A stretch of 64,000 bases of DNA, from positions 434-64,433 of the forward strand of contig JAGVZW010000033.1 in the NCBI GenBank assembly GCA_018302235.1. The letters run 5' to 3'. A model generated the notes under the pieces. That model was given only the letters and a program-made list of their open reading frames with translations, did no database searches and was not told where the DNA came from. Source of the stretch: Candidatus Woesearchaeota archaeon (GTDB lineage Archaea; Nanobdellota; Nanobdellia; SCGC-AAA011-G17; GW2011-AR18). Positions 41,341 to 64,000 of the stretch are shown here, piece by piece. Each line of letters starts with the position of its first letter. Positions within the stretch are counted from its first letter, which is position 1. Both the position numbers and the translations under genes were made by a program.

Positions 41341-41452
41341 GCCTCACTAGCTCAGCCTGGTTAGAGCGCCACTCTCATATGTTTGAGAAATGAAGCATTA
41401 GCTAATGAACTAAGAAAGGTGGAGGTCGGGGGTTCAAATCCCCCATGAGGCA
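41341..41452 (+). tRNA. tRNA-Met (anticodon CAU) with a 37-nt intron at the canonical 37/38 position.
   Basis: Manual fold: acceptor GCCTCAC..ATGAGGC, D-arm GCTC/GAGC, anticodon stem CCACT/GGTGG with CTCATA followed by the intron (41380..41416), T-arm GGGGG TTCAAAT CCCCC. Confidence 0.7.
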
Positions 41453-45966: not shown

Positions 45967-47172
45967 TTAAATAAAATATAAAAATAAATTAGCAATTAAA
46001 TGCGCTAATATTGGATAAAAAATACTTCCTTTTCTAGCTAAATAGCCCATAAACAAAGAAAATATAAATAGAGCAATAAAATAAAGAATTACAAATAAAT
46101 AATCATTATAATATGAAAAAATTGTTTTTAAAAATAAAAAATGGATCGAAGCAAACAATAATGATTGTAATATTTGTGCTTTTTTAAAAGAAAATGATTT
46201 TTCACTTAATTTTAAAAGAATTAATCTAAACATATTTTCTTCTGTGATTGCAATAAATATTGGAGCAAATATGAAACTAAAATTTATGGGTTCTTTAATA
46301 ATATAAAATACATAACCAAGACAAAAGCCAAATAACAAAGATAGTAATATATTTTTTAAATTAAAAATAAAATTAAATTCTAATTTAAAAAACCTAACTA
46401 GATATATCGAAATTATTGTTAATAAAATTAGAATTATTTGATCTATAAAAGGAATATATTTTTCTAACAAAAAACCAATAAAACCAAAAAATAAATATAA
46501 GAATATTATTGCATTAATAGCTAAAATAAAATCATCTCTATATTCCTTTAAACCTATTAATTCCCTATAAAATACAAAATTAAAGATTAAACTTACTATT
46601 AAAAATGAAAAGAGAATAATTATTGAATTATTAATTAGATTTATAATTCCTATAGCTAATAATACAACACTAAACCCATATATTATAATTAATTTATTAT
46701 TTAATAAATCTTTTAAAATATTTCTGGCTAAATATCTACAACTAAAATAAGTGAAGATAAAAAAACCACCTAAATAAAATAAGATATCTAATAAAAATAA
46801 AAAAATAAGTAAAAAAACCATAATATAATCATTACTTTCTATAAAAAATAGAATTCCATTAAAATAATAATTTACAATAGAATAAATATAATTCCAGAGA
46901 AATATTCCTAAAAATACAAGGCTTCCTAAAAACAAAGAACTTATTAAAATATCCCTAAATTTTCTAATTAGTAAAAGAAAAACAAATATTAAAATAAGAA
47001 TAACAAATAATGTTTCAAAATTAAAGAAACTTACGGATGACAATTTATACGTTAAGAAATCAACACCAATTATACCTCCTGAAGATATAATCGCCTTTTG
47101 ATTCACCCACGGAACAAACAAAAAACAGAGAATAGATATAACTATGCAGCAGATTAAAATGTATCTTTTCAA
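45967..47172 (-). CDS. CPBP-family (CAAX protease/Abi) intramembrane metalloprotease with a long N-terminal membrane extension.
   Basis: TEENMFRLILL (EExxxR), LFASIHF (FxxxH) and ILAHLIANLF (HxxxN). Confidence 0.6.
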   Translation of the reverse strand: MKRYILICCIVISILCFLFVPWVNQKAIISSGGIIGVDFLTYKLSSVSFFNFETLFVILILIFVFLLLIRKFRDILISSLFLGSLVFLGIFLWNYIYSIVNYYFNGILFFIESNDYIMVFLLIFLFLLDILFYLGGFFIFTYFSCRYLARNILKDLLNNKLIIIYGFSVVLLAIGIINLINNSIIILFSFLIVSLIFNFVFYRELIGLKEYRDDFILAINAIIFLYLFFGFIGFLLEKYIPFIDQIILILLTIISIYLVRFFKLEFNFIFNLKNILLSLLFGFCLGYVFYIIKEPINFSFIFAPIFIAITEENMFRLILLKLSEKSFSFKKAQILQSLLFASIHFLFLKTIFSYYNDYLFVILYFIALFIFSLFMGYLARKGSIFYPILAHLIANLFLYFI

Positions 47173-47302
47173 ACCATTTATAAAATCCCCTATTTTAACA
47201 TCAAAAACAACAAAACAGCAAAATAGAATAGGAATAATTAATAAAAATAAAACACCTAATCCACTTAAGATGTAAATAATTGTGGTTAAAATATTAATTG
47301 AT

Positions 47303-47941
47303 TCAGATTGAAAATGTTCTATTAAGCTTAAATGTAAGTTTTCTACCGAGAATATTTAATATCTTAATTTTCTCACTCTTTAAGTCTTTAATAGCATAAA
47401 TTAGCGCCACAATAAATAAAGATTTGTCTAAAGATACCATGAACCATTGATTAACTAAACCAAACAAATATTGTGAAAATGCAAATAAAATTATAAAGAT
47501 TGAAAAAAACCTTAACCATAAGTTATTCTTTAAATAATTAGTTTTCTTAATTAAATTTGTTACTGCATAAACAACAGATAATTCTTTAATATTATTTTTT
47601 TTAGAGAAATAAAATGCTATTATTATTAGTATACTAGTACCTAATATCAAAGAAATATAACTAATTAATGTAGAATATATAGAAATATCTTTTTCTATAA
47701 AAGGAAGAAAGGTATCAATAACTAAAATATAAAATCCAAATAGAATTAACCAGTCTAATTTTTTATTCTTCGTACCTATGATAAAATTTGTTGGACTTAA
47801 CCTTAACCAAAAACAAAATAATAAAATTGCTGTTAATAATTTATCAATAATATTAAATGAACCTGGTAAAAGATTAAAAAAATCAAGAAAACCAAGGCAC
47901 AAAAGAAACAATTTAAAAATAATATCTAAATATTTATTCAT
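47303..47941 (-). CDS. Polytopic membrane protein, hypothetical.
   Basis: 212 aa with 6 or more hydrophobic segments. Confidence 0.35.
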   Translation of the reverse strand: MNKYLDIIFKLFLLCLGFLDFFNLLPGSFNIIDKLLTAILLFCFWLRLSPTNFIIGTKNKKLDWLILFGFYILVIDTFLPFIEKDISIYSTLISYISLILGTSILIIIAFYFSKKNNIKELSVVYAVTNLIKKTNYLKNNLWLRFFSIFIILFAFSQYLFGLVNQWFMVSLDKSLFIVALIYAIKDLKSEKIKILNILGRKLTFKLNRTFSI

Positions 47942-53722: not shown

Positions 53723-54118
53723 TTAATACTTCCTTTTTCTTCTATCTAATGTTAGAAGTTCAATTTTAAATGGATCTTTTTTTATTTCTTTAACTATTGT
53801 AGCTGGTCCAACAATAGTTAAACCATTTGATCTACCCAATAAAAAATTAGCAATTTTTAATCTGATCCTCTCAAATAATTCCTGATTTTGTTTAATGTTA
53901 TCAATACTGCATATCTCGATCCCCTTAAATTTTTTATCTATTTCCTCCATTGTTTTAGTTATTAATTCTGCCTCTTCATTAGGATCTAATTTTCCCTCTA
54001 TTAAAATTATCTTATCCTCTTTTACACTCCTTAAAATCTTTTTTAATTTTTCTTCTGTATTCAAATTTCCAAGTTCATGATATGGGATATATTGTAACGT
54101 TAACAATTTTTTGTTCAC
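53723..54118 (-). CDS. Conserved archaeal hypothetical protein, possibly DUF2073-like.
   Basis: 131 aa, overlaps the upstream GTPase stop by 4 nt and lies 3 nt upstream of the Zn-ribbon gene. Confidence 0.35.
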   Translation of the reverse strand: MNKKLLTLQYIPYHELGNLNTEEKLKKILRSVKEDKIILIEGKLDPNEEAELITKTMEEIDKKFKGIEICSIDNIKQNQELFERIRLKIANFLLGRSNGLTIVGPATIVKEIKKDPFKIELLTLDRRKRKY

Positions 54119-56136
54119 CTCTTTTTCACCATTTCAAATACCTTATCATAAAATTCCTCCATGTTTAAGCCCTTTTCAGCTGATATGCCTATAACAGAAT
54201 ATTGAGGAAATGCATCTTCTATTTTTTTTACATCAGATTTCTTTAAATCTGTTTTATTAGCTACAATTAAAACTGGAATATCCCTTGCAGCTAAATTACC
54301 TATAATTGTTATATTTACTTGATTATATGGATTTCTAGTTGAATCTAATACAATTAAAACACAATCCATATCATCCAACCATTTTATTGCATCTATAATC
54401 CCCTTTGTAGCCTCTTTCGCCCTTTCTTTTGCTTCATCTATCTTCATTTTAAATTTAAGAAAATCCTCATAATCAATCTTTGTAGCGATTCCTGGTGTAT
54501 CAACTAGATTAAAACTTAATTCCTTTCCCTTTGAATTAATAGTGATTTTTTCCTTCATATTTATTTCCCTTGTTTCATGTGGAATAGAAGATACTGTTCC
54601 CATATCTTCCCCTAACCAATCCTGACATATTCTATTTGCAATGCTAGTATTATGAGCGATCAGGCCATTAGAAATAATAAAGGTATGTGTATCTTCAATT
54701 GTTAAATCATAAATATAATCATTATATTCTTCTTGAGTTATTTCTTTAATTTCATCCCACAAGTTATCTGAATTAGTTAAAGTCTTTATAATTTTATTAT
54801 TTAATACTCTAGACATTTTCTCTAATCTATGATATGATATTCTATTATCTCTGTACATTCTAGCAATATGTTTATTATCTAAATAAAATTCTTCTTCTTT
54901 TAATTTCTCTTGTTTTCTTATATTTTCCAATAAACCCATAATAGGCAAATAAAACTTATTTCTTTTTAAACAACATTTGGATAGTTTATCTAATCTTTCA
55001 GCTTTATATTTTATTCTAAAACCAATTTTTTCTTTAAACAATCTGTGATTATCACTTCCAAATATAAATAAACTCCAGTAGGCTTGACCATTAATTAATT
55101 TTGATCTAAATCTCCCTACAATCCCAAATCTATTTAAAAGTAATTGAACTTGTTCTACCAAAATTTTACTTTTGGTACTATATTCAATCTGATTGCTAGA
55201 ATTTTTAGTTAATTTAGAAACATAACCCCCCATATCAAATAAAATTTGTAATAATTTTGCTGTTAAATTATCAGGTAAACCCATAAATTGTGAAGGAATT
55301 TGTTTATTACCTGAAAGAGATGGTTTGAAATTTAAACTTTTTTCTAAAAAATCAGTTAATGTTCTTGAATTTAATTCTCTTTCAGGCACACCATTATTTA
55401 TTCTTTTAATGGCTTCTAAATTGAATAATTTTTTTGTTAAATAATCAAAATGATTTAATGCGTATTCGTCTGAATTACTAAATTTAATCACGCTTTTTGT
55501 ATAATATGCTTCTGTAATTAGATAACCTATAAAACTAACTAAATCTTCATCTATGTAAGAAGGTATAATTATCTCTTTTTGATTATGAAATTTAGATATT
55601 ATTTGTATCATATTGCCATTAACGTTGAAACAATTTTCAGTAATTAATTTGGGTAACATAATGTTTGTTGCTAAGGATAACTTTTTTGCAATAGCAATAG
55701 ATTCATTAGCCTTTAAACCTCCAGTTCTTATATTCTCTACGCCATTATTTGAAAGCCTGATTAATGGATGTTCTGGTGTAACTCTTATTTGTCTACCCGC
55801 TTTAGTTAAAATATTATATATTTTTCCTTTATATTTTTGAGCATAAACAAAACTCACTCGTTTTGGAATTATTTTTAAGGTTTGTGTATTAAAACTTGGT
55901 ATGATTAAATTTTTAGATCTTACATCAATATATATTTCATTAAATGAATTATTATGGTTTACGCTATCAAATATTTCTTTTATTGTTTTAATTTCTCCAT
56001 TCATTAATACAATTTTAGTTTCTGGTGTAACACATTTTCCGCTGTTCGGTGGCCCATAAAGTCCTAATTTTATATTCTTCTTTTTATTAAAAATTGACCT
56101 TAAATTAAAAAAGAAAACCTTAAGCTTACGAATCAT
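54115..56136 (-). CDS. Small Ras/Era-like GTPase interrupted by an intein in the P-loop. The mature extein is about 211 aa.
   Basis: Extein motifs are GLYGPPNSGK|...|TSI (G1, split), DTPG (G3), NKTD (G4) and SAEK (G5). The intervening 462 aa begin with Cys and end with HN, followed by Thr. Confidence 0.65.
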   Translation of the reverse strand: MIRKLKVFFFNLRSIFNKKKNIKLGLYGPPNSGKCVTPETKIVLMNGEIKTIKEIFDSVNHNNSFNEIYIDVRSKNLIIPSFNTQTLKIIPKRVSFVYAQKYKGKIYNILTKAGRQIRVTPEHPLIRLSNNGVENIRTGGLKANESIAIAKKLSLATNIMLPKLITENCFNVNGNMIQIISKFHNQKEIIIPSYIDEDLVSFIGYLITEAYYTKSVIKFSNSDEYALNHFDYLTKKLFNLEAIKRINNGVPERELNSRTLTDFLEKSLNFKPSLSGNKQIPSQFMGLPDNLTAKLLQILFDMGGYVSKLTKNSSNQIEYSTKSKILVEQVQLLLNRFGIVGRFRSKLINGQAYWSLFIFGSDNHRLFKEKIGFRIKYKAERLDKLSKCCLKRNKFYLPIMGLLENIRKQEKLKEEEFYLDNKHIARMYRDNRISYHRLEKMSRVLNNKIIKTLTNSDNLWDEIKEITQEEYNDYIYDLTIEDTHTFIISNGLIAHNTSIANRICQDWLGEDMGTVSSIPHETREINMKEKITINSKGKELSFNLVDTPGIATKIDYEDFLKFKMKIDEAKERAKEATKGIIDAIKWLDDMDCVLIVLDSTRNPYNQVNITIIGNLAARDIPVLIVANKTDLKKSDVKKIEDAFPQYSVIGISAEKGLNMEEFYDKVFEMVKKR
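54649..56034 (-). other. Intein (about 462 aa) with a LAGLIDADG-type homing endonuclease domain, inserted after the P-loop Lys.
   Basis: Block A is CVTPETKIVLMNGE directly after GPPNSGK. The C-terminal block is THTFIISNGLIAHN, with Thr as the +1 residue. Internal LAGLIDADG-like motifs are LVSFIGYLITEAYY and LLQILFDMGGYVS. Confidence 0.6.
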
Positions 56137-58281: not shown

Positions 58282-58881
58282 ATGGAAAAACGCACTGACT
58301 ATTTTGAAACAAAAAATAGGGAGTTTTATTATGAATTTAAACAAACAGAAGATAAGAAAAAACGCGAAGAATGGGTATTATTTAACAAACATCTTGTTTA
58401 TTCTATAGCAAAAAAATTTACTAATTTTAGTATATATGATGATATTATTCAAGAGGGGTATATTGGCTTAATCCATGCTGTAGATAGATATAACCCGAAT
58501 TTAGGGAATTTTAGCAGTTTCGCATACTCTGCTATAATGAGAGAAATAATTAGATATATAAGAAAAAATAGATCAATAGTACATCCCCCTATAAATAATC
58601 AGCTAAGTGTATCAAAAGACGTAGCTATTGATGATATTATAGACCTAGAAGCAGAAACAAATCCAGAAACAGTACTACAAAAAAAAGAATTGGTTGAAGA
58701 TGTTCAAAAAACATTAAAATTAACAAGTTTAAGTGATATCTTAATTAGAATAATGTATGATGAAAATACATCAATAATAGCCAGAGCATATAAAGTATCT
58801 AGAAGAGAAATGCACCAATTAGAAACTAGGGCAGTTAAAACATTTAAAAAAAGATTCGAAACACCTGAAGCCTATATTTAA
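58282..58881 (+). CDS. Sigma-70-family-like protein (regions 2 and 4) encoded in an archaeal context.
   Basis: DIIQEGYIGLIHAVDRYNPNLGNFSSFAYSAIMREIIRYIRKNRSIVHPP aligns with sigma-70 regions 2.1 to 2.4 (DLIQEGNIGLMKAVDKF..G.KFSTYA.WWIRQAI.R.I...RTIRIP). IARAYKVSRREMHQLETRAVKTFKK resembles the region 4.2 HTH (VTRERIRQIEAKALRKLR). Confidence 0.55.
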   Translation: MEKRTDYFETKNREFYYEFKQTEDKKKREEWVLFNKHLVYSIAKKFTNFSIYDDIIQEGYIGLIHAVDRYNPNLGNFSSFAYSAIMREIIRYIRKNRSIVHPPINNQLSVSKDVAIDDIIDLEAETNPETVLQKKELVEDVQKTLKLTSLSDILIRIMYDENTSIIARAYKVSRREMHQLETRAVKTFKKRFETPEAYI

Positions 58882-58906
58882 TTTTTATTCTTCAAACCAC
58901 ACCTTA

Positions 58907-61060
58907 TTAACACTGCTCAAATACCTTTTGTTTATCTTCTTCCGTAATAAATTTATATTTTACTAAAAAATCAAATGAAGCAATATAAACACCTGTATAC
59001 GGACTATATTCACATATATGTTGCTTAAATTCCATTGGCCTATTTCTAATTTTAGTTGTCATATCAGAAATATCCTCATCCCAATCAGTAGCCCCATAAG
59101 GAGTAGCATAACCATAAGCAACCTCAAAAAGTGATTCATCACTCCACCCTAAACCATCAGACAATTTTTTATTAGGATAAGCATCATTTCCCTTATGAAT
59201 ATCATACCATTCTTGTTTAAAAAGGTTTTTTTCTCCTTTTTTATATCTACTAGAATATTTTTCAATCAATGGATGTGATAGTTCATGAACTAAAAATTCA
59301 TCATCTGAAAATTTATCACTTGTTACTTCTACGACATTATTTCCTATGCACCCAACAGTAGATTCATCTGATTGATGACATGCCTTTAAAAGATCATTTT
59401 TATTATTGTAAAGAACAATTTCCTTTAAACCAACCCTCATTTCAGGAGTAGAAGAATCTAATACATCCCCTAAATAAGATAATTGATCTTTACTGTAATC
59501 TCCATTTAATTTTATATTATATTTTTTTTCTAATAATCTTTTAGAAGATTTATCAACAAAAAATTTAGGTTTAGAGATTAGATCTTCAACTAGGTTAAAA
59601 CTACCATCCTCTTCAAAATTAACAAACCCAATTCCTATATCAAACTCAAAAGGAACAGCTTTAATATTTGATTTATCATTAACGAACCGTATATCTCGAT
59701 TTGTATACGTATCAAAAATATTTGGACCGTTCTGCATTCTAAATAGTTTTGTTTTTCCACCCAATTTTGAATATAATCTAACCACTGGGTTAGGATCATA
59801 ATCTTCCATCTTTAAAGAGTAACTTTCTTTATCATCAAAATCAAATTTAACATCACCTTTAAAGAAAGAATCCTTTGTAAAATCAAGATTAAAATCACCT
59901 TTGTCCTTCGCAATATTTGTATAAACCCCCACTTCTCCAAGAGAAATATAACTAGTATCTACCCCATGTTTATTACCATCAAAAAATAATTTTGTTTCTT
60001 GTTCACTGTATACATGAATACCATTAATTACACTATCTTTTGTATAAAAAGTATTACCTTTAATCAGAATTTCACCCTTATTTAATGTATTAAACTGGTT
60101 AATCTTGACATTTTCTCCAGTAATCTTCATATCAGGTCCATTTTCAGACATAGGCAATTCTTTAAATTCAGAATCCTTTGGAGCATTTAAAGTTATTATT
60201 CCATCCTTAAATTTAACATTAGAACCTGGCGGAGCATAAAATTTAGTTCCTTTTATATTATAATCACCACCTTGATCACCAATCTTAAAATCAGCCTCAA
60301 CTAAATCACCCTTAGCATCTAAAGTAAATGTACTTTTACCGTTTTCTGTAGGAATAATATTCTTAAATTCATTATCTCCTATCTTTAAGTCCCCTTCTTT
60401 TTCTATATTAATAACATTTAAATCATTTAAAGAGCTTGAACTAACTCCATTTGGATCACCAGAAAAAGAAAGATAATCATTAGTCTCATATCCTAAAGAT
60501 TCTCCAAAATTAAGCCCAGCAGCAGAAATTAAAAAGGAAAATAAAATAAAAAATATAAACACATTTTTTCTTAAATTCCTTAAAATAAGAATTAAAATTA
60601 TTATTAAACTAAAAATTAAAATATACAATAAATATTTCTTTTCTTCAGAAACTGGTTCTTCAATTATTTTTTCTTCTTCCTTAAAATAATCCACTAAATT
60701 AATCTCTAAAATCATATCTAAAGAGTCATTATAAACAAAAATATCCAGAATATTTTTATCATATTTAACACTTAAAATACCACTATAATAATCCCTCAAA
60801 AAAGTCTCGTCAGTTCCATTTTCATAATAAAACCTAATTTCTCTATCAAATTCAAAAGAATCCATTTCAACAATATTATTACTTAAATCAAATACTTGAT
60901 AGACATAATTTCCTTCATTATCTATTACATCATAATAATTCAACCCTATAATCTCGTAATCATAAACACCATTATCATAACTAATATTTATATCTAAATA
61001 TTCTCCAGCGTTAACACATATAATACTAATTATAAAAATAAATATTACCTCTTTAAACAT
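58907..61060 (-). CDS. Large secreted/membrane protein with a C-terminal HExxH zincin-like region.
   Basis: Signal peptide MFKEVIFIFIISIICVNAG. A mid-protein hydrophobic stretch. The C-terminal part has FLVHELSHPLIEKYS (HExxH) and downstream E/D residues. Confidence 0.4.
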   Translation of the reverse strand: MFKEVIFIFIISIICVNAGEYLDINISYDNGVYDYEIIGLNYYDVIDNEGNYVYQVFDLSNNIVEMDSFEFDREIRFYYENGTDETFLRDYYSGILSVKYDKNILDIFVYNDSLDMILEINLVDYFKEEEKIIEEPVSEEKKYLLYILIFSLIIILILILRNLRKNVFIFFILFSFLISAAGLNFGESLGYETNDYLSFSGDPNGVSSSSLNDLNVINIEKEGDLKIGDNEFKNIIPTENGKSTFTLDAKGDLVEADFKIGDQGGDYNIKGTKFYAPPGSNVKFKDGIITLNAPKDSEFKELPMSENGPDMKITGENVKINQFNTLNKGEILIKGNTFYTKDSVINGIHVYSEQETKLFFDGNKHGVDTSYISLGEVGVYTNIAKDKGDFNLDFTKDSFFKGDVKFDFDDKESYSLKMEDYDPNPVVRLYSKLGGKTKLFRMQNGPNIFDTYTNRDIRFVNDKSNIKAVPFEFDIGIGFVNFEEDGSFNLVEDLISKPKFFVDKSSKRLLEKKYNIKLNGDYSKDQLSYLGDVLDSSTPEMRVGLKEIVLYNNKNDLLKACHQSDESTVGCIGNNVVEVTSDKFSDDEFLVHELSHPLIEKYSSRYKKGEKNLFKQEWYDIHKGNDAYPNKKLSDGLGWSDESLFEVAYGYATPYGATDWDEDISDMTTKIRNRPMEFKQHICEYSPYTGVYIASFDFLVKYKFITEEDKQKVFEQC

Positions 61061-61477
61061 AGTTTTAAAAATAAAAACTATAATATAAATTTAATCTTAT
61101 TTTAGAGCGTATTTAACCGAAAAATAACATTAATATGTTTTTTTCTAGACTTAAGAACAAAGTTAGAAGAAATAAAAATACTTGAAATTTTAAATGAATG
61201 GAAAAAAAAAATAATATTAAGTTTATTCCATTATGGAAATGGTTATTGTTAAATGAATAAATTTTATTTACAAGAATCAACTAAAAGCATTATTTCAATA
61301 AGATATTTTTCCATATAAAAAAAATATTAGGAAATTACACATCGTCAAATAAAAGAAAATATATATTAACAATAATAGAGATATTATATCACAAAATAAT
61401 TACAATACTAAGATAATAGATAGCTTACTGAAATCAAAGAATTATATTTAGGTCCAGTCAAAAATAATTCTATAAAA

Positions 61478-62221
61478 TTAAATAATATTCTTAATTTCTT
61501 TAAATATAACAGCAAAATTAGGAACTATAGAAACATAATCCTTCAATTCATTTGACCATAAATTTTCCATATCTTTAATCTTTAATAAAAAAGACTTAGA
61601 ATCATATTTTTGATTATAATATTTTAATTTTTTATTAATCAGACTAATATCAAATTTAACACCTTTTCTTAATAAAAAATAAAAATCAAATATGTCTCTT
61701 GGTTTGCTTCTATTCATTATTGTTCTTACCTTTTCAGCCATAATTTCTCTCTCATCCATTACTAAAATATTATATGGTCTCAAATCAGAATAAACAGGAA
61801 ATATTTCAATTAATTTAGGATCTAACAAAATACTCTCTCGTAAACTGATGTCTAATCGAAGAGTACATAAACTAACTAAACTATTTACATATAAAGGCCC
61901 TTTTATCTTAAAAATAAAATTTTTTCCCAAATTTTTAACTTCTTCAAATTTAGTCTCATATCCAAAATCAGTTAAAGAATTAGCTATCTTAGAAATTAAA
62001 CTAATATCAAAATCTTTTGTTTGTGTAAAATCCAAATCTATACTAAACCTATTCAAACCATAAATCTTCTGCATAGCAGTTCCACCCTTAAAAATTAATT
62101 CATTAGAAAAATATTGTGACAAAAAGATTAAAAATAAATGTTGTAAATAATCCTTTTCGACTTGTGCTAAATTAAATCCTATAACTGAACAATATTTATT
62201 TAATTCATTTTTAGTTATCAT
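61478..62221 (-). CDS. AbiEii/DUF1814-family nucleotidyltransferase (type IV toxin-antitoxin / abortive-infection toxin).
   Basis: IFKGGTAMQKIYGLNRFSIDLDF matches the conserved DUF1814 N-terminal block (GGTAL...RFSxDxDF). Confidence 0.65.
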   Translation of the reverse strand: MITKNELNKYCSVIGFNLAQVEKDYLQHLFLIFLSQYFSNELIFKGGTAMQKIYGLNRFSIDLDFTQTKDFDISLISKIANSLTDFGYETKFEEVKNLGKNFIFKIKGPLYVNSLVSLCTLRLDISLRESILLDPKLIEIFPVYSDLRPYNILVMDEREIMAEKVRTIMNRSKPRDIFDFYFLLRKGVKFDISLINKKLKYYNQKYDSKSFLLKIKDMENLWSNELKDYVSIVPNFAVIFKEIKNII

Positions 62222-62916
62222 TCCAATACCTCATTAATATTTAATCTCCATCTAACTGAGTTATTTTTGCTTTTTTTCAAATAAGGATTCAAAAGATCAT
62301 ATCTATTGTTAATTTTTACCTTTTTTGATATATCAATACTAATCAAATCCAATAAAAACCCCAATCTTTTTAACAAAACAATAGAATTCATCAGTAAAGC
62401 ATATTTTAATAATTTTTCAATATCAATTTTATTTTTTAAAACCTCAAAAGTCTCAGAAATTGGACAAAATTTAGGTAGATATAAAGAATCAATTATAGCT
62501 TTTTCTAACTCTGCAACAAATAAATAATTCTTTTTATAAATCATCTTTCTATAGCCAAAAACATTTTTTAAAACAACAAAATTAATAGTCATCTTATTAA
62601 AAATTAAAGATTTTTTTGGTTTAGAAGAAACAATATAAATAGTCTTAGGAATTTGTGTAGTCAAACCATAAATAGAGTAGGCACTAATAAAAGAGATATA
62701 TGACGGAAAAATCAAATTAGAAGCAACCTCATAAGGTTCATCAGATAGAGTATATTTATTTTTTTCTATCTCCGTAATAATATTCCTTTTTTTTAGTCTA
62801 TATATATACAAACGACTATACTCTTTATTTTTATTAATAATCTTAGAGATATCATTTAATGTTAGAACTGAAGTTTTCATAGTTTCAATTTTTTTTAAAA
62901 AATCAAGTGCTTGCAT
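62218..62916 (-). CDS. AbiEi-like antitoxin/transcriptional regulator partner of AbiEii.
   Basis: 232 aa. Its stop overlaps the AbiEii start by 4 nt. The N-terminal region is wHTH-like. Confidence 0.45.
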   Translation of the reverse strand: MQALDFLKKIETMKTSVLTLNDISKIINKNKEYSRLYIYRLKKRNIITEIEKNKYTLSDEPYEVASNLIFPSYISFISAYSIYGLTTQIPKTIYIVSSKPKKSLIFNKMTINFVVLKNVFGYRKMIYKKNYLFVAELEKAIIDSLYLPKFCPISETFEVLKNKIDIEKLLKYALLMNSIVLLKRLGFLLDLISIDISKKVKINNRYDLLNPYLKKSKNNSVRWRLNINEVLE

Positions 62917-63525
62917 AAAGATATATTATTCTTTAACTATTTAAACTTTTTTATTTAATAAAATTATCAAATAAGCTAACTATAACAAAACAAAAAGTTA
63001 AAAATAACTAATAAATTTAATAAAATTATCATTTATGATAATTATAAACAAAAATATAGTAATATAAATAGAGTACAACGACCAAAAAAAGTATCATTCT
63101 TCTTAGAAACATAGCTATGTAAGAACAAAATAAAACAATATTATAAGAATCCAAAATTTTCTTCAACTTTCTTAATAAACTCTCTAGCAACATTCAAAGA
63201 TTTTTTTACTTTTTCAAGATCTATAACTTCATTTCGTAATAAAATAACAATCTTCAATATTCATATCAAATCTTCTCCATATAAAACAATATGATTTCTC
63301 ATTATATTATCATAAAAAACCCTATCATTCCTTTTTATATTTTTCCATTTTTCTATAGACAAAACCTCTATATTTACTTCTTTTTCTAATTTTTGTTCAA
63401 TTATCTGAGTTTCTTTTAAAAAATCTAGATTATATATGAAATAGAAATTAATGGTTTATTAGAAACATTAAAAGAATTAATATTAATAACAAAAAATTTA
63501 GAAAAAAAGATAATATTCAATTCGC

Positions 63526-63927
63526 TCATGAGACTTTTTGAATATTCCTACAGAGATCACCCATTTCTGTATCATAATAAACTGCATATTGACCAAAAAC
63601 AGTTGGATCCTCCCTATCATCATCACAAAAGTAGTTCTGTACAGAGTTTACTTCCCATATTTCCAAATCTATATCCTCATGATTACATTCTAGTGTGAAG
63701 TCATCATTAGAAACATAACCCCTAACCTCAAGTTCTTCCATCACCACACTCTCCTCTAAAAGGTACAAATAAAAAACCTGCTCCCCATAAGAATGATCAT
63801 CATTAAGCTCCTGTACATTTTCTGGATACAAATAAGCTGCACGATCAGAATTTTCTACTTCATATTCCATATCATTATTCTCGTTTTTTATTTTACAACT
63901 AAAATTTCCAAAGTCATTATCATGCAT
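63526..63927 (-). CDS. Acidic hypothetical protein.
   Basis: 133 aa, rich in D/E/Y/N. No motif recognised. Confidence 0.25.
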   Translation of the reverse strand: MHDNDFGNFSCKIKNENNDMEYEVENSDRAAYLYPENVQELNDDHSYGEQVFYLYLLEESVVMEELEVRGYVSNDDFTLECNHEDIDLEIWEVNSVQNYFCDDDREDPTVFGQYAVYYDTEMGDLCRNIQKVS

Positions 63928-64000
63928 TAAATCATTATCTAAAGAAAAATATAAACCAAGATAATCATCAGAAAAATATAAATAAGCAGATTCAAAATTA

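Follow-up and report, generated by a model that had tools for sequence, protein, structure and literature searches.

Genes and features of the locus

Sequence comparison identifies an intact, genuine AbiEi/AbiEii toxin-antitoxin (TA) pair of the abortive-infection type in a tiny DPANN archaeon. The host genome is that of a Candidatus Woesearchaeota with a GC content of ~27%, and its source is the Rifle aquifer. The pair lies within the window, i.e. the whole stretch of 64,000 nucleotides analyzed here, and its features are summarized in Table 1. Both genes are on the same strand, with the antitoxin gene first and a 4-nt ATGA overlap. The sequence-only reading of this DNA had given the toxin gene these boundaries and a 232-residue partner overlapping it by four nucleotides; both statements are exact, for the minus strand. 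The antitoxin-first order, with abutting or overlapping genes, recurs in all 11 homologous loci examined, where AbiEi and AbiEii are always adjacent. From this layout, we infer that the two genes are co-transcribed as a bicistronic operon. The sequence of the pair is identical across many independent metagenome assemblies. In NCBI, the toxin is named AbiEii/AbiGii toxin family protein (MBS3159893.1) and the antitoxin “hypothetical protein J4436_03835”.

Table 1. Features of the abiE locus, with positions counted from the first nucleotide of the window and promoter distances counted from the abiEi ATG.
Feature	Position	Strand	Description
Non-coding spacer	61061..61477	.	abiEii stop to start of the 717-aa gene (p717); T-rich right after the abiEii stop
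abiEii	61478..62221	-	247 aa; DUF1814 nucleotidyltransferase toxin, by PF08843, PADLOC AbiEii and fold
abiEi	62218..62916	-	232 aa; antitoxin and presumed autorepressor, by PADLOC AbiEi, profile-to-PDB and fold
Conserved regulatory block of the cassette	62917..63056	-	140 nt; 90% identical to the nearest relative, L009
Putative archaeal abiE promoter	62938..62951	-	AAAAAG (BRE-like) then TTTAAATA (TATA box); -35..-22
Proximal operator-like site	62964..62979	.	TTAGCTTATTTGATAA; imperfect TTATCA-N4-TGATAA (2 mismatches); -63..-48
Distal operator-like site	63026..63041	.	Perfect palindrome TTATCA-TTTA-TGATAA; -125..-110
Possible partner HEPN remnant	63144..63260	-	Frameshifted; starts at ATGA junction with the MNT remnant; by reading frames
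Pseudogene remnant	63261..63434	-	C-terminal ~57 codons of an HTH-MNT (minimal nucleotidyltransferase) antitoxin-type gene, translation ...IEVLSIEKWKNIKRNDRVFYDNIMRNHIVLYGEDLI*

The toxin and antitoxin

The toxin matches the Pfam profile PF08843 with an E-value of 3.9e-31 and 109.2 bits (cut-off 22.5 bits), as expected from its earlier assignment to DUF1814, and the PADLOC AbiEii profile PDLC02323 end to end (E=1.2e-71, 1-246 of 248). The block on which that assignment was based, GGTAMQKIYGLNRFSIDLDF, is present in the reading frame and makes up nucleotidyltransferase motifs I (K45-G46-G47) and II (R58, D62, D64). Motifs III (K164, R171) and IV (D176, D179) follow, and the residues of all four motifs, together with S60, are invariant in 23 archaeal homologues. 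In a family profile, the catalytic residues align with R63/D67/D69/K173/R180/D192 of Streptococcus agalactiae AbiEii (9HLO_B), whose mutation abolishes toxicity (PMC3985639); all residues essential for toxicity in that protein are conserved in the Woesearchaeota toxin. The invariant S60, located in R-F-S-I-D-L-D two residues before the catalytic D62, aligns to the phospho-acceptor T65 in R-S-T-V-D-I-D of S. agalactiae AbiEii and is likely to be the phospho-acceptor here. The AF2 model of the toxin (pLDDT 92.3) has MenT3/TglT, MenT4, JHP933, and MenT1 as its best PDB folds in Foldseek, with E-values of 5.9e-10 for MenT3/TglT (6J7Q), 1.1e-9 for MenT4 (6Y56), and 5e-4 for MenT1 (8AN4). Relative to L009, dN/dS is 0.21 for abiEii and 0.24 for abiEi, and both genes are under purifying selection.

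The antitoxin matches the PADLOC AbiEi profile PDLC02267 end to end (E=1.7e-46). Its family profile matches S. agalactiae AbiEi (6Y8Q/9HLO_A) at E~1e-6 over residues 35-186; single-protein phmmer searches of the PDB missed the S. agalactiae structures, and family profiles were needed to find them. The AF2 model (pLDDT 94.7) begins H-H-H-strand-strand, and its only PDB matches at E<=0.001 in Foldseek are 6Y8Q (8.4e-8) and Rv2827c (1ZEL, 1.3e-4). The protein has the N-terminal wHTH and C-terminal antitoxin domain of the AbiEi/COG5340 family. As a single sequence it falls below the AbiEi thresholds of Pfam (AbiEi_1, E=0.06) and NCBIfam (18.8 vs 150 bits), whereas 25/36 close homologues match PF13338 AbiEi_4. 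Overall, the identification of an AbiEi/AbiEii pair is borne out, by the DUF1814 match for the toxin and by PADLOC, profile-to-PDB, and fold for the antitoxin.

One difference from the bacterial antitoxin is situated in a loop that, in S. agalactiae, contacts the toxin. T86-T87-Q88-I89-P90 aligns to the contact loop T-D85-E86-I87-P of S. agalactiae AbiEi, in which D85-E86-I87 are collectively required for stable toxin binding (bioRxiv 10.64898/2026.01.19.700257). TTQIP is nearly invariant in the archaeal clade, with T-Q in place of the acidic pair D-E. Since the archaeal loop reads T-Q-I and the S. agalactiae loop D-E-I, details of neutralisation may differ.

The promoter and candidate operator

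An AAAAAG plus TTTAAATA-like element is found at the same distance in seven Woesearchaeota loci, and the BRE/TATA element probably acts as the abiE promoter. No Shine-Dalgarno sequence was read before abiEi, which points to a leaderless mRNA or one with a very short leader. Upstream of this element, the palindrome TTATCA-N4-TGATAA occurs twice. The 18-nt palindrome is matched exactly at the distal site and nowhere else in the 64-kb window. The proximal site falls in a 55-nt direct repeat with 62-nt spacing, and better palindromes occupy its position in homologous loci. Allowing one mismatch or fewer, the motif is found 13 times in the 1,760 nt that precede 11 abiEi genes, at 10/11 loci, against an expectation of 0.02 from a background of 13 in 1.07 Mb; the P-value of this enrichment is inflated because the palindrome was partly derived from the loci counted and because the window and L009 are close relatives. 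On this distribution, the palindrome is a likely candidate for the AbiEi operator.

The regulatory block is better conserved than the genes that it precedes. It is identical to that of L009 at 126/140 positions, compared with 78-81% identity for the abiE coding DNA, and further upstream the figure drops to 25/55, with homology ending abruptly. No description of the operator and promoter layout of archaeal abiE was found in a non-exhaustive literature search.

Surrounding genes, remnants, and spacer

Two putative gene remnants are present upstream of the cassette. In tblastn, the MNT remnant weakly matches the C-terminal end of a 192-aa HTH-nucleotidyltransferase at another locus (L017; E=0.002), where a HEPN-like gene follows; this hints that the remnant is separate from AbiE and marks TA turnover at the spot. 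The adjacent 63144..63260 is tentatively read as the remnant of a HEPN gene, and has no significant database match. An intact HEPN/MNT pair lies ~1.2 kb past the end of the window.

The spacer downstream of abiEii presumably contains the terminator of the abiE operon and the promoter that drives the next gene. It had been described as an AT-rich gap of ~400 bp. The gap exists and is long (417 nt, seventh longest of 30 gaps), but its GC content of 17.7% is not unusual among intergenic regions here, which average 20.7%. Eight metagenome contigs that are otherwise identical have a 506-nt spacer, owing to an extra 89-nt palindromic segment. This indel was considered as a repeated MITE and rejected as such: no second copy exists in the window or any locus. 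Searches of the non-coding gaps found no intrinsic terminators and no Rfam family at the gathering threshold or E<=1. Sigma-70 promoter-like sites are fewer in the gaps than in shuffles, as expected for an archaeon.

The sigma-70-like gene matched only itself in a word-index search, and its best relative in an exhaustive HMMER search was no better than E=1e-14 with 30% identity. Neither it nor p717 matched a defence model in PADLOC, save for a generic sigma region-2 match to MzaA. Such sigma-70-like genes are fast-evolving orphans that adjoin the 227-aa anchor gene, p227, at one edge of the variable TA-rich region in both relatives. Nothing supports a functional tie of the sigma-like gene or the HExxH protein to AbiE, and the presence of sigma-70 genes in Woesearchaeota is already published.

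A probably inherited cassette in a variable region

The sequence-only reading had also drawn the whole of 58282..63927, comprising AbiE, the sigma-70-like gene, the HExxH protein, and the AT-rich gap, as a horizontally acquired defence or accessory island. The accessory part of this proposal stands. The content between the anchors differs strongly between the window and L009, and the stretch is TA-rich: here AbiE is accompanied by the intact HEPN/MNT and decayed MNT/HEPN modules, while the same region of L009 carries AbiE, HepT/MNT, and VapBC. AbiE also adjoins MNT/HEPN at two other loci (L173 and L174). The modules in this cluster are exclusively of TA type, with no restriction-modification (RM) or CRISPR genes. 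The stretch past L21e is unconserved: at 72 loci from more distant Woesearchaeota/Nanoarchaeia, AbiE, the sigma gene, p717, and p227 are all absent from the 10-kb surroundings of L21e-RpoF-DUF655. In addition, the AbiE cassette occupies unrelated sites in other Woesearchaeota, consistent with past mobility, and published phylogeny infers a bacterial origin of archaeal AbiE (PMC12988326). The variable content, the clustering of TA modules, the scattered sites, and the inferred bacterial origin would fit a recently acquired island.

Nevertheless, recent acquisition is improbable. Gene composition and codon use are typical of the window: every gene in 58282..63927 falls within ~2 SD of the reference in GC content, GC3, and synonymous-codon likelihood, the reference being the genes of this one 64-kb window. 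The abiE genes are within ~1.4 SD, with z-scores for GC, GC3, and codon log-likelihood of -1.3, -0.7, and +1.0 for abiEii and -1.3, 0.0, and -0.2 for abiEi. The sigma gene and p717 are within 1 SD, and the partial ORF 63526..63927 is ~+1.6 to +1.8 SD in GC and GC3. The closest homologues of both AbiEii and AbiEi are archaeal, mostly from Woese-, Pace-, and Nanoarchaeota, rather than bacterial. Hallmarks of mobility were not seen either: no tRNA gene lies in or near the block, no mobility gene is recognisable in the Pfam lists of the neighbours checked, and the two stretches searched contain only short or local repeats, with no long flanking ones noticed. The idea of a provirus or mobile element was likewise rejected, as p717, p383, p227, p171, and p202 have no PHROG matches; among the phage and archaeal-virus protein families, the sigma gene matches generic sigma-factor families only, and apart from the MzaA match given above neither it nor p717 is recognised by a defence model. 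The right border at 63927 is an ORF-calling artefact, the reading frame there being the C-terminal part of a 383-aa gene (p383) that runs off the window end.

Synteny bears on both halves of the question. In L009, the AbiE cassette and its promoter lie between the same anchors, NifS-NifU-PDDEXK on one side and p227 on the other, although the neighbours differ. Its AbiE proteins are 71-74% identical in amino acids to those of the window, inside the 69-88% range of core genes. L009 is the single near relative available for comparison, and no same-genus genome lacking the cassette was found. Scans anchored on p227 retrieved nothing from genome or metagenome contigs, and a NifU-anchored metagenome scan retrieved distant relatives only (<=68% identity), with no useful synteny. 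A tblastn search with the NifS-to-p383 stretch against the 72 DUF655 loci gave just two weak NifS matches; hence the island is not delimitable from distant genomes. Overall, the AbiE cassette sits in a variable, TA-rich stretch, and it looks inherited instead of newly imported.

Comparison with known systems

The AbiE systems of S. agalactiae and Lactococcus lactis (6Y8Q, 9HLO) resemble the cassette in several respects. They share an antitoxin-first bicistronic operon of overlapping genes, an antitoxin of the same fold with a wHTH plus C-terminal domain, promoter inverted repeats (PMC3985639), and a DUF1814 toxin in which the catalytic residues are the same and a Ser/Thr acceptor precedes the first catalytic Asp by two residues. 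In contrast, identity is ~20% or less for both proteins, the archaeal toxin is shorter (247 vs 287 aa) and its antitoxin longer (232 vs 195 aa), and the host here is a DPANN archaeon, in which the function of the pair is a prediction. The candidate operators also differ. The archaeal one is a 16-bp palindrome present twice, 62 bp apart, upstream of BRE/TATA, whereas the bacterial operator has two 23-bp arms, with 3 nt between them, over a -35/-10 promoter (PMC3985639).

The best structural matches of the AbiEii model are the Mycobacterium tuberculosis MenAT toxins (MenT3/TglT Rv1045, MenT4 Rv2826c, MenT1), and the AbiEi model matches Rv2827c, the partner of MenT4. MenT toxins act by modifying tRNAs, and phosphorylation at the equivalent Ser/Thr controls them (bioRxiv 10.64898/2026.01.19.700257). 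Sequence identity to MenAT is only 13-17%, the target tRNA and nucleotide preference are not predictable, and MenT toxins are longer (~290 aa) with extra elements.

The closest likeness is to the archaeal AbiE clade represented by PDLC02323 and PDLC02267, which both proteins match end to end. Homologues at 45-74% identity are found in Woese-, Pace-, Nano-, and Aenigmatarchaeota, Nitrososphaeria, and Methanoperedens. AbiE is reported to be enriched in DPANN, and archaeal AbiE to cluster apart from bacterial AbiE (“Diversity and evolution of archaeal immune strategies”, PMC12988326). The locus is an ordinary member of this known, partly annotated family, with nothing essential to set it apart. 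HEPN/MNT (HepT/MntA) modules, neighbours of AbiE here and in several relatives, are likewise described as combining a nucleotidyltransferase with covalent modification of the partner (PMC7641770). However, they belong to another family outside the AbiE pair and their roles are reversed, MNT being the antitoxin and HEPN an RNase toxin.

A model for the cassette

On this basis, the following model can be proposed. The operon would be transcribed from the BRE/TATA promoter ~25-35 nt upstream of the abiEi ATG, and translation of abiEii, which has its own upstream GAGGT, would be coupled to that of abiEi through the ATGA overlap. AbiEii is predicted to be a pol-beta-fold nucleotidyltransferase that adds nucleotides to tRNAs, leading to translation and growth arrest; S. 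agalactiae AbiEii and the MenT toxins of mycobacteria are the models for this proposed activity. AbiEi would hold the toxin through the TTQIP loop and C-terminal domain and promote auto-phosphorylation of S60, switching the toxin off. Through its wHTH, it would also bind the palindromes and repress the operon. If AbiEi were then lost or titrated, or the toxin dephosphorylated, for example upon virus infection, the toxin would be freed, with dormancy or abortive infection as the outcome.

The proposed phosphorylation step follows a type VII scheme. In S. agalactiae, binding of AbiEi to AbiEii triggers auto-phosphorylation of the toxin, and AbiE has been reclassified accordingly, in place of an older type IV view with no stable toxin-antitoxin contact (bioRxiv 10.64898/2026.01.19.700257). 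The type IV label previously attached to this locus is now contested by that 2026 preprint, and the acceptor residue is conserved here. Family membership in sequence and fold, conservation of the catalytic and phospho-acceptor positions, purifying selection, operon layout, and the conserved promoter and palindrome are all direct observations on this locus; its toxicity, tRNA target, phosphorylation, DNA binding, and antiviral role are predictions.

Biological role

We consider it probable that the locus is a functional two-gene AbiE cassette (AbiEi-AbiEii; COG5340/DUF1814) of the archaeal clade, encoded in the chromosome of this Woesearchaeota genome. The contrary notion, of an inactive pair in decay like the adjacent MNT/HEPN fragments, draws on those fragments lying directly upstream and on the truncated AbiEii of a relative, but has very little to commend it. 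Both reading frames are full length and collinear with homologues, the catalytic residues are all intact, dN/dS is ~0.2, conservation is higher in the promoter and candidate operator than in the coding DNA, and many independent metagenome assemblies carry the identical sequence.

A stronger competitor, though still the less likely one, is a working TA module that takes no part in antiviral defence: a selfish addiction element, a stabiliser of the genome, or a switch between growth and dormancy, for example in an episymbiont that loses its host. The structure of the pair would be the same in either case, and sequence alone cannot tell an antiviral from a non-antiviral role. The neighbours are TA modules instead of RM, CRISPR, or other dedicated defence genes, and one relative (L167/L168) keeps the antitoxin with a truncated, 125-aa AbiEii, as is typical of decaying addiction modules. 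In addition, S. agalactiae AbiE gave E. coli no protection against 32 coliphages (bioRxiv 10.64898/2026.01.19.700257), and even in the type system defence against viruses cannot be taken for granted. Against this, L. lactis AbiE and the related RlegTA and SanaTA confer phage resistance (bioRxiv 10.64898/2026.01.19.700257), and the statistical enrichment of AbiE in CRISPR/RM-depleted DPANN is read by its authors as defence (PMC12988326).

Beyond the functional AbiE cassette itself, a broader and rather speculative idea is that the archaeal clade is a domain-adapted variant. A bacterial-type repressor would have been rewired onto BRE/TATA through TTATCA-N4-TGATAA, typically in two copies 62 bp apart, and the system would be kept vertically under purifying selection in CRISPR-poor DPANN symbionts, where, by acting on archaeal tRNAs, it could serve as a main switch for antiviral defence or dormancy. 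As a bolder extension, the sigma-70-like genes beside p227 may be functionally tied to the AbiE region.

The value of the locus is modest: it is a clean, well-supported example of AbiE in a DPANN archaeon, from a lineage said in the literature to depend on AbiE-type systems in place of CRISPR and restriction-modification. The locus also provides an annotation for an antitoxin listed as a hypothetical protein in GenBank, and yields a candidate operator and promoter model for the archaeal AbiE clade. Its neighbourhood is to be seen as a variable, TA-rich stretch and not a freshly imported island. As a compact cassette with defined catalytic, putative phospho-acceptor, and operator sites, it is a reasonable candidate for experiments on archaeal AbiE.

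Identity of the gene pair

The two minus-strand genes which the sequence-only reading had taken for an AbiEi/AbiEii pair with a 4-nt overlap were recovered at exactly those ORF positions, the overlap reading ATGA, and their identity is upheld by Pfam, PADLOC, profile and fold matches. The DUF1814 assignment of the downstream gene was borne out by PF08843 (E=3.9e-31, 109 bits against a cut-off of 22.5 bits) and by an end-to-end match to the PADLOC AbiEii model (1.2e-71). The 232-aa partner matches the PADLOC AbiEi model (1.7e-46); alone, it falls below the Pfam and NCBIfam AbiEi thresholds, and its homologues, family profile and AlphaFold model were therefore examined. PF13338 (AbiEi_4) is matched by 25 of 36 close homologues, and the family profile retrieves S. 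agalactiae AbiEi (6Y8Q, 9HLO_A) at E~1e-6, with the match covering most of its length. The sole PDB matches to the AbiEi model (pLDDT 94.7) with E<=0.001 are 6Y8Q and M. tuberculosis Rv2827c, while the AbiEii model (pLDDT 92.3) best matches MenT3/TglT, MenT4, JHP933 and MenT1. GenBank lists the toxin of this Candidatus Woesearchaeota MAG as "nucleotidyl transferase AbiEii/AbiGii toxin family protein" (MBS3159893.1) and the antitoxin as "hypothetical protein J4436_03835" (MBS3159894.1). Hence the toxin is already annotated, and its pairing with the antitoxin is not.

Features of the abiE region (window coordinates)
Feature	Position	Strand	Description
Sigma-70-family gene	58282..58881	+	Full length, regions 2 and 4; TIGR02937 match over full length
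717-aa protein	58907..61060	-	Signal-like N-terminus, internal hydrophobic stretch, C-terminal HELSH (HExxH) motif
abiEii	61478..62221	-	247 aa, downstream gene, DUF1814/AbiEii nucleotidyltransferase
abiEi	62218..62916	-	232 aa, upstream gene
Putative BRE/TATA promoter	62938..62951		AAAAAG-TTTAAATA, 35 to 22 nt upstream of abiEi ATG
Imperfect palindrome	62964..62979		TTATCA-N4-TGATAA
Perfect palindrome	63026..63041		TTATCA-N4-TGATAA
HTH-MNT/HEPN TA pair remnants	63144..63434	-	Frameshifted; between 383-aa gene and abiE promoter
383-aa Cys-rich protein	63526..64000, continuing in comparison locus L001 7545..8696	-	N-terminal membrane helix; 133-aa ORF is the C-terminal part only

Conserved residues

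In an alignment with 23 archaeal homologues, K45-G46-G47, R58, S60, D62, D64, K164, R171, D176 and D179 of AbiEii are invariant. The family profile aligns R58/D62/D64/K164/R171/D179 to R63/D67/D69/K173/R180/D192 of S. agalactiae AbiEii (9HLO_B), where mutation of these residues or of the motif I GG abolishes toxicity (PMC3985639). S60 aligns to T65, which is phosphorylated in S. agalactiae when AbiEi is present (bioRxiv 10.64898/2026.01.19.700257). On the antitoxin side, the nearly invariant T86-T87-Q88-I89-P90 aligns to the loop T-D85-E86-I87-P that S. agalactiae AbiEi requires for stable toxin binding (bioRxiv 10.64898/2026.01.19.700257); the loop keeps its position, with T-Q in place of the acidic pair D-E. 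Relative to L009, the locus of the nearest relative, dN/dS is 0.24 for abiEi and 0.21 for abiEii. Elsewhere, two loci of the woesearchaeote GCA_002763335.1 (L167 3508..3885, L168 4311..4688) encode an AbiEii cut to 125 aa beside a whole 237-aa AbiEi, a case in which the toxin has decayed and the antitoxin is kept.

Promoter and predicted operator

No Shine-Dalgarno sequence precedes the abiEi start, and together with the AAAAAG element this suggests an archaeal BRE/TATA promoter layout giving a leaderless mRNA. In abiEii, GAGGT lies 9-13 nt before the ATG. Farther upstream than the TATA element of abiEi is a 55-nt direct repeat with a spacing of 62 nt, each copy of which contains a version of the TTATCA-N4-TGATAA palindrome. 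Identity to L009 is 90% over the 140 nt upstream of abiEi and 78-81% for coding DNA, and the sequence beyond those 140 nt is unrelated (45%). Allowing up to one mismatch, 13 copies of the palindrome were counted in 1,760 nt of sequence preceding 11 abiEi genes, at 10 of the 11 loci including a Methanoperedens contig. Its background of 13 occurrences in 1.07 Mb of archaeal DNA gives 0.02 expected against the 13 observed, a statistic that is inflated because these data partly served to define the motif and two of the loci are closely related; independent loci agree. The palindromes lie at about -125 and -63 in the Woesearchaeota loci and abut the TATA box in two others. This arrangement fits the predicted role of AbiEi as a wHTH autorepressor, as bacterial AbiEi is, with a different operator (PMC3985639).

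Genomic context

The window (GC ~27%) has archaeal neighbours, namely ribosomal protein L21e, Rpb4/RpoF, DUF655 and an intein-bearing GTPase followed by OapB and OapC. The GTPase gene, at 54115..56136(-), is split by an intein that carries a LAGLIDADG homing-endonuclease domain. An Rfam tRNA (48 bits, 112-nt span) at 41341..41452(+), missed by ARAGORN, is probably an archaeal tRNA that contains an intron. At 45967..47941(-) lie the two genes of lowest GC in the window (18.9% and 20.8% GC, z about -2); no part of the proposed island departs as far from the window average.

Rifle aquifer metagenome contigs carry essentially the same AbiE region (99.8-100% identity). All eight such near-identical contigs have an extra 89-nt palindromic segment at window 61161/61162 (L001 11061..11149) that the window lacks. 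It reads ATCAAATTT...AAATTTGA, with an inner 16-nt hairpin and an RNA fold of -15 kcal/mol, and has no further copies in the window or any fetched locus. The difference could reflect strain variation, hairpin deletion or assembly.

The sigma-like gene does encode a sigma-70-family protein (TIGR02937, 78.5 bits against a cut-off of 42.9). It is an orphan, its next best match among 1.84 billion representative proteins having E=1e-14 and 30% identity. L009 has a different 304-aa sigma gene in the same spot beside p227, a 227-aa neighbour protein, in opposite orientation. Woesearchaeota sigma-70 genes were reported earlier, with their role left open (PMC8204110). Pfam, NCBIfam, PADLOC and PHROG gave no match for the 717-aa protein, and no tie of either gene to AbiE was found. 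In the TA remnants an ATGA junction is still discernible; the MNT part weakly matches comparison locus L017 (tblastn E=0.002), and the HEPN call, from reading frames, is tentative. The 383-aa protein has no family match. Past it, outside the window, lie a whole HEPN and MNT pair, an M48 peptidase, a PD-(D/E)XK (Cas4/Dna2-like) nuclease and NifU/NifS.

An accessory region, probably not a recent import

The proposal of a horizontally acquired island at 58282..63927 stands as regards a variable, accessory, TA-rich region, but not as regards recent import. The 72 species-level Woesearchaeota/Nanoarchaeia loci compared share a conserved L21e-RpoF-DUF655 block; within 10 kb of it, none of them carries AbiE, the sigma gene or the gene for the 717-aa or the 227-aa protein. 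Gene content between the same anchors is very different in L009. Further TA genes surround the cassette, with the intact HEPN/MNT pair shortly beyond the end of the window, HepT/MNT and VapBC in the L009 region, and MNT/HEPN or a second AbiE adjoining AbiE in other archaea. The cassette directly adjoins an HTH-MNT/HEPN pair in L173 (5610..6600), and an MNT gene and second AbiE pair in L174 (5671..8076), which suggests that these TA families recur side by side.

Several results speak against recent import. The proposed-island genes are unremarkable in GC, GC3 and synonymous-codon likelihood. No tRNA gene or recognisable mobility gene was found in the island or the neighbours checked. The only phage or archaeal-virus family matches among those neighbours were to generic sigma-factor families, and a repeat search of local stretches gave no long flanking repeat. 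Both AbiE proteins have their closest homologues in archaea. L009 holds the same cassette and promoter between the same anchors, NifS-NifU-PDDEXK and p227, with AbiE identity of 71-74% to the window, against 69-88% for those core genes. The right border at 63927 is an artefact, the ORF there being the tail of the 383-aa gene as it leaves the window. On the parsimonious reading, the cassette is probably old, ameliorated and vertically inherited within a rearrangement-prone TA hotspot. Over longer time scales it has clearly been mobile, since other Woesearchaeota hold AbiE at unrelated sites.

Predicted function and significance

Judging from its homologues, AbiEii would transfer nucleotides to tRNAs and thereby halt translation. 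In S. agalactiae the toxin modifies tRNA using UTP or CTP, and tRNAs are likewise modified by MenT toxins (bioRxiv 10.64898/2026.01.19.700257). AbiEi would repress the operon and, under the type VII model, neutralize the toxin by inducing auto-phosphorylation of S60; freed toxin would cause growth arrest or abortive infection. Phage protection is given by L. lactis AbiE, RlegTA and SanaTA, and S. agalactiae AbiE leaves E. coli unprotected (bioRxiv 10.64898/2026.01.19.700257). The sequence alone is compatible with an antiviral or a merely addictive role and cannot tell them apart.

The locus belongs to the AbiE family, within an archaeal clade already modelled in PADLOC, and enrichment of AbiE in DPANN is already published (PMC12988326). 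What is new is the antitoxin assignment of MBS3159894.1, the residue mapping, and the conserved layout of promoter and predicted operator.
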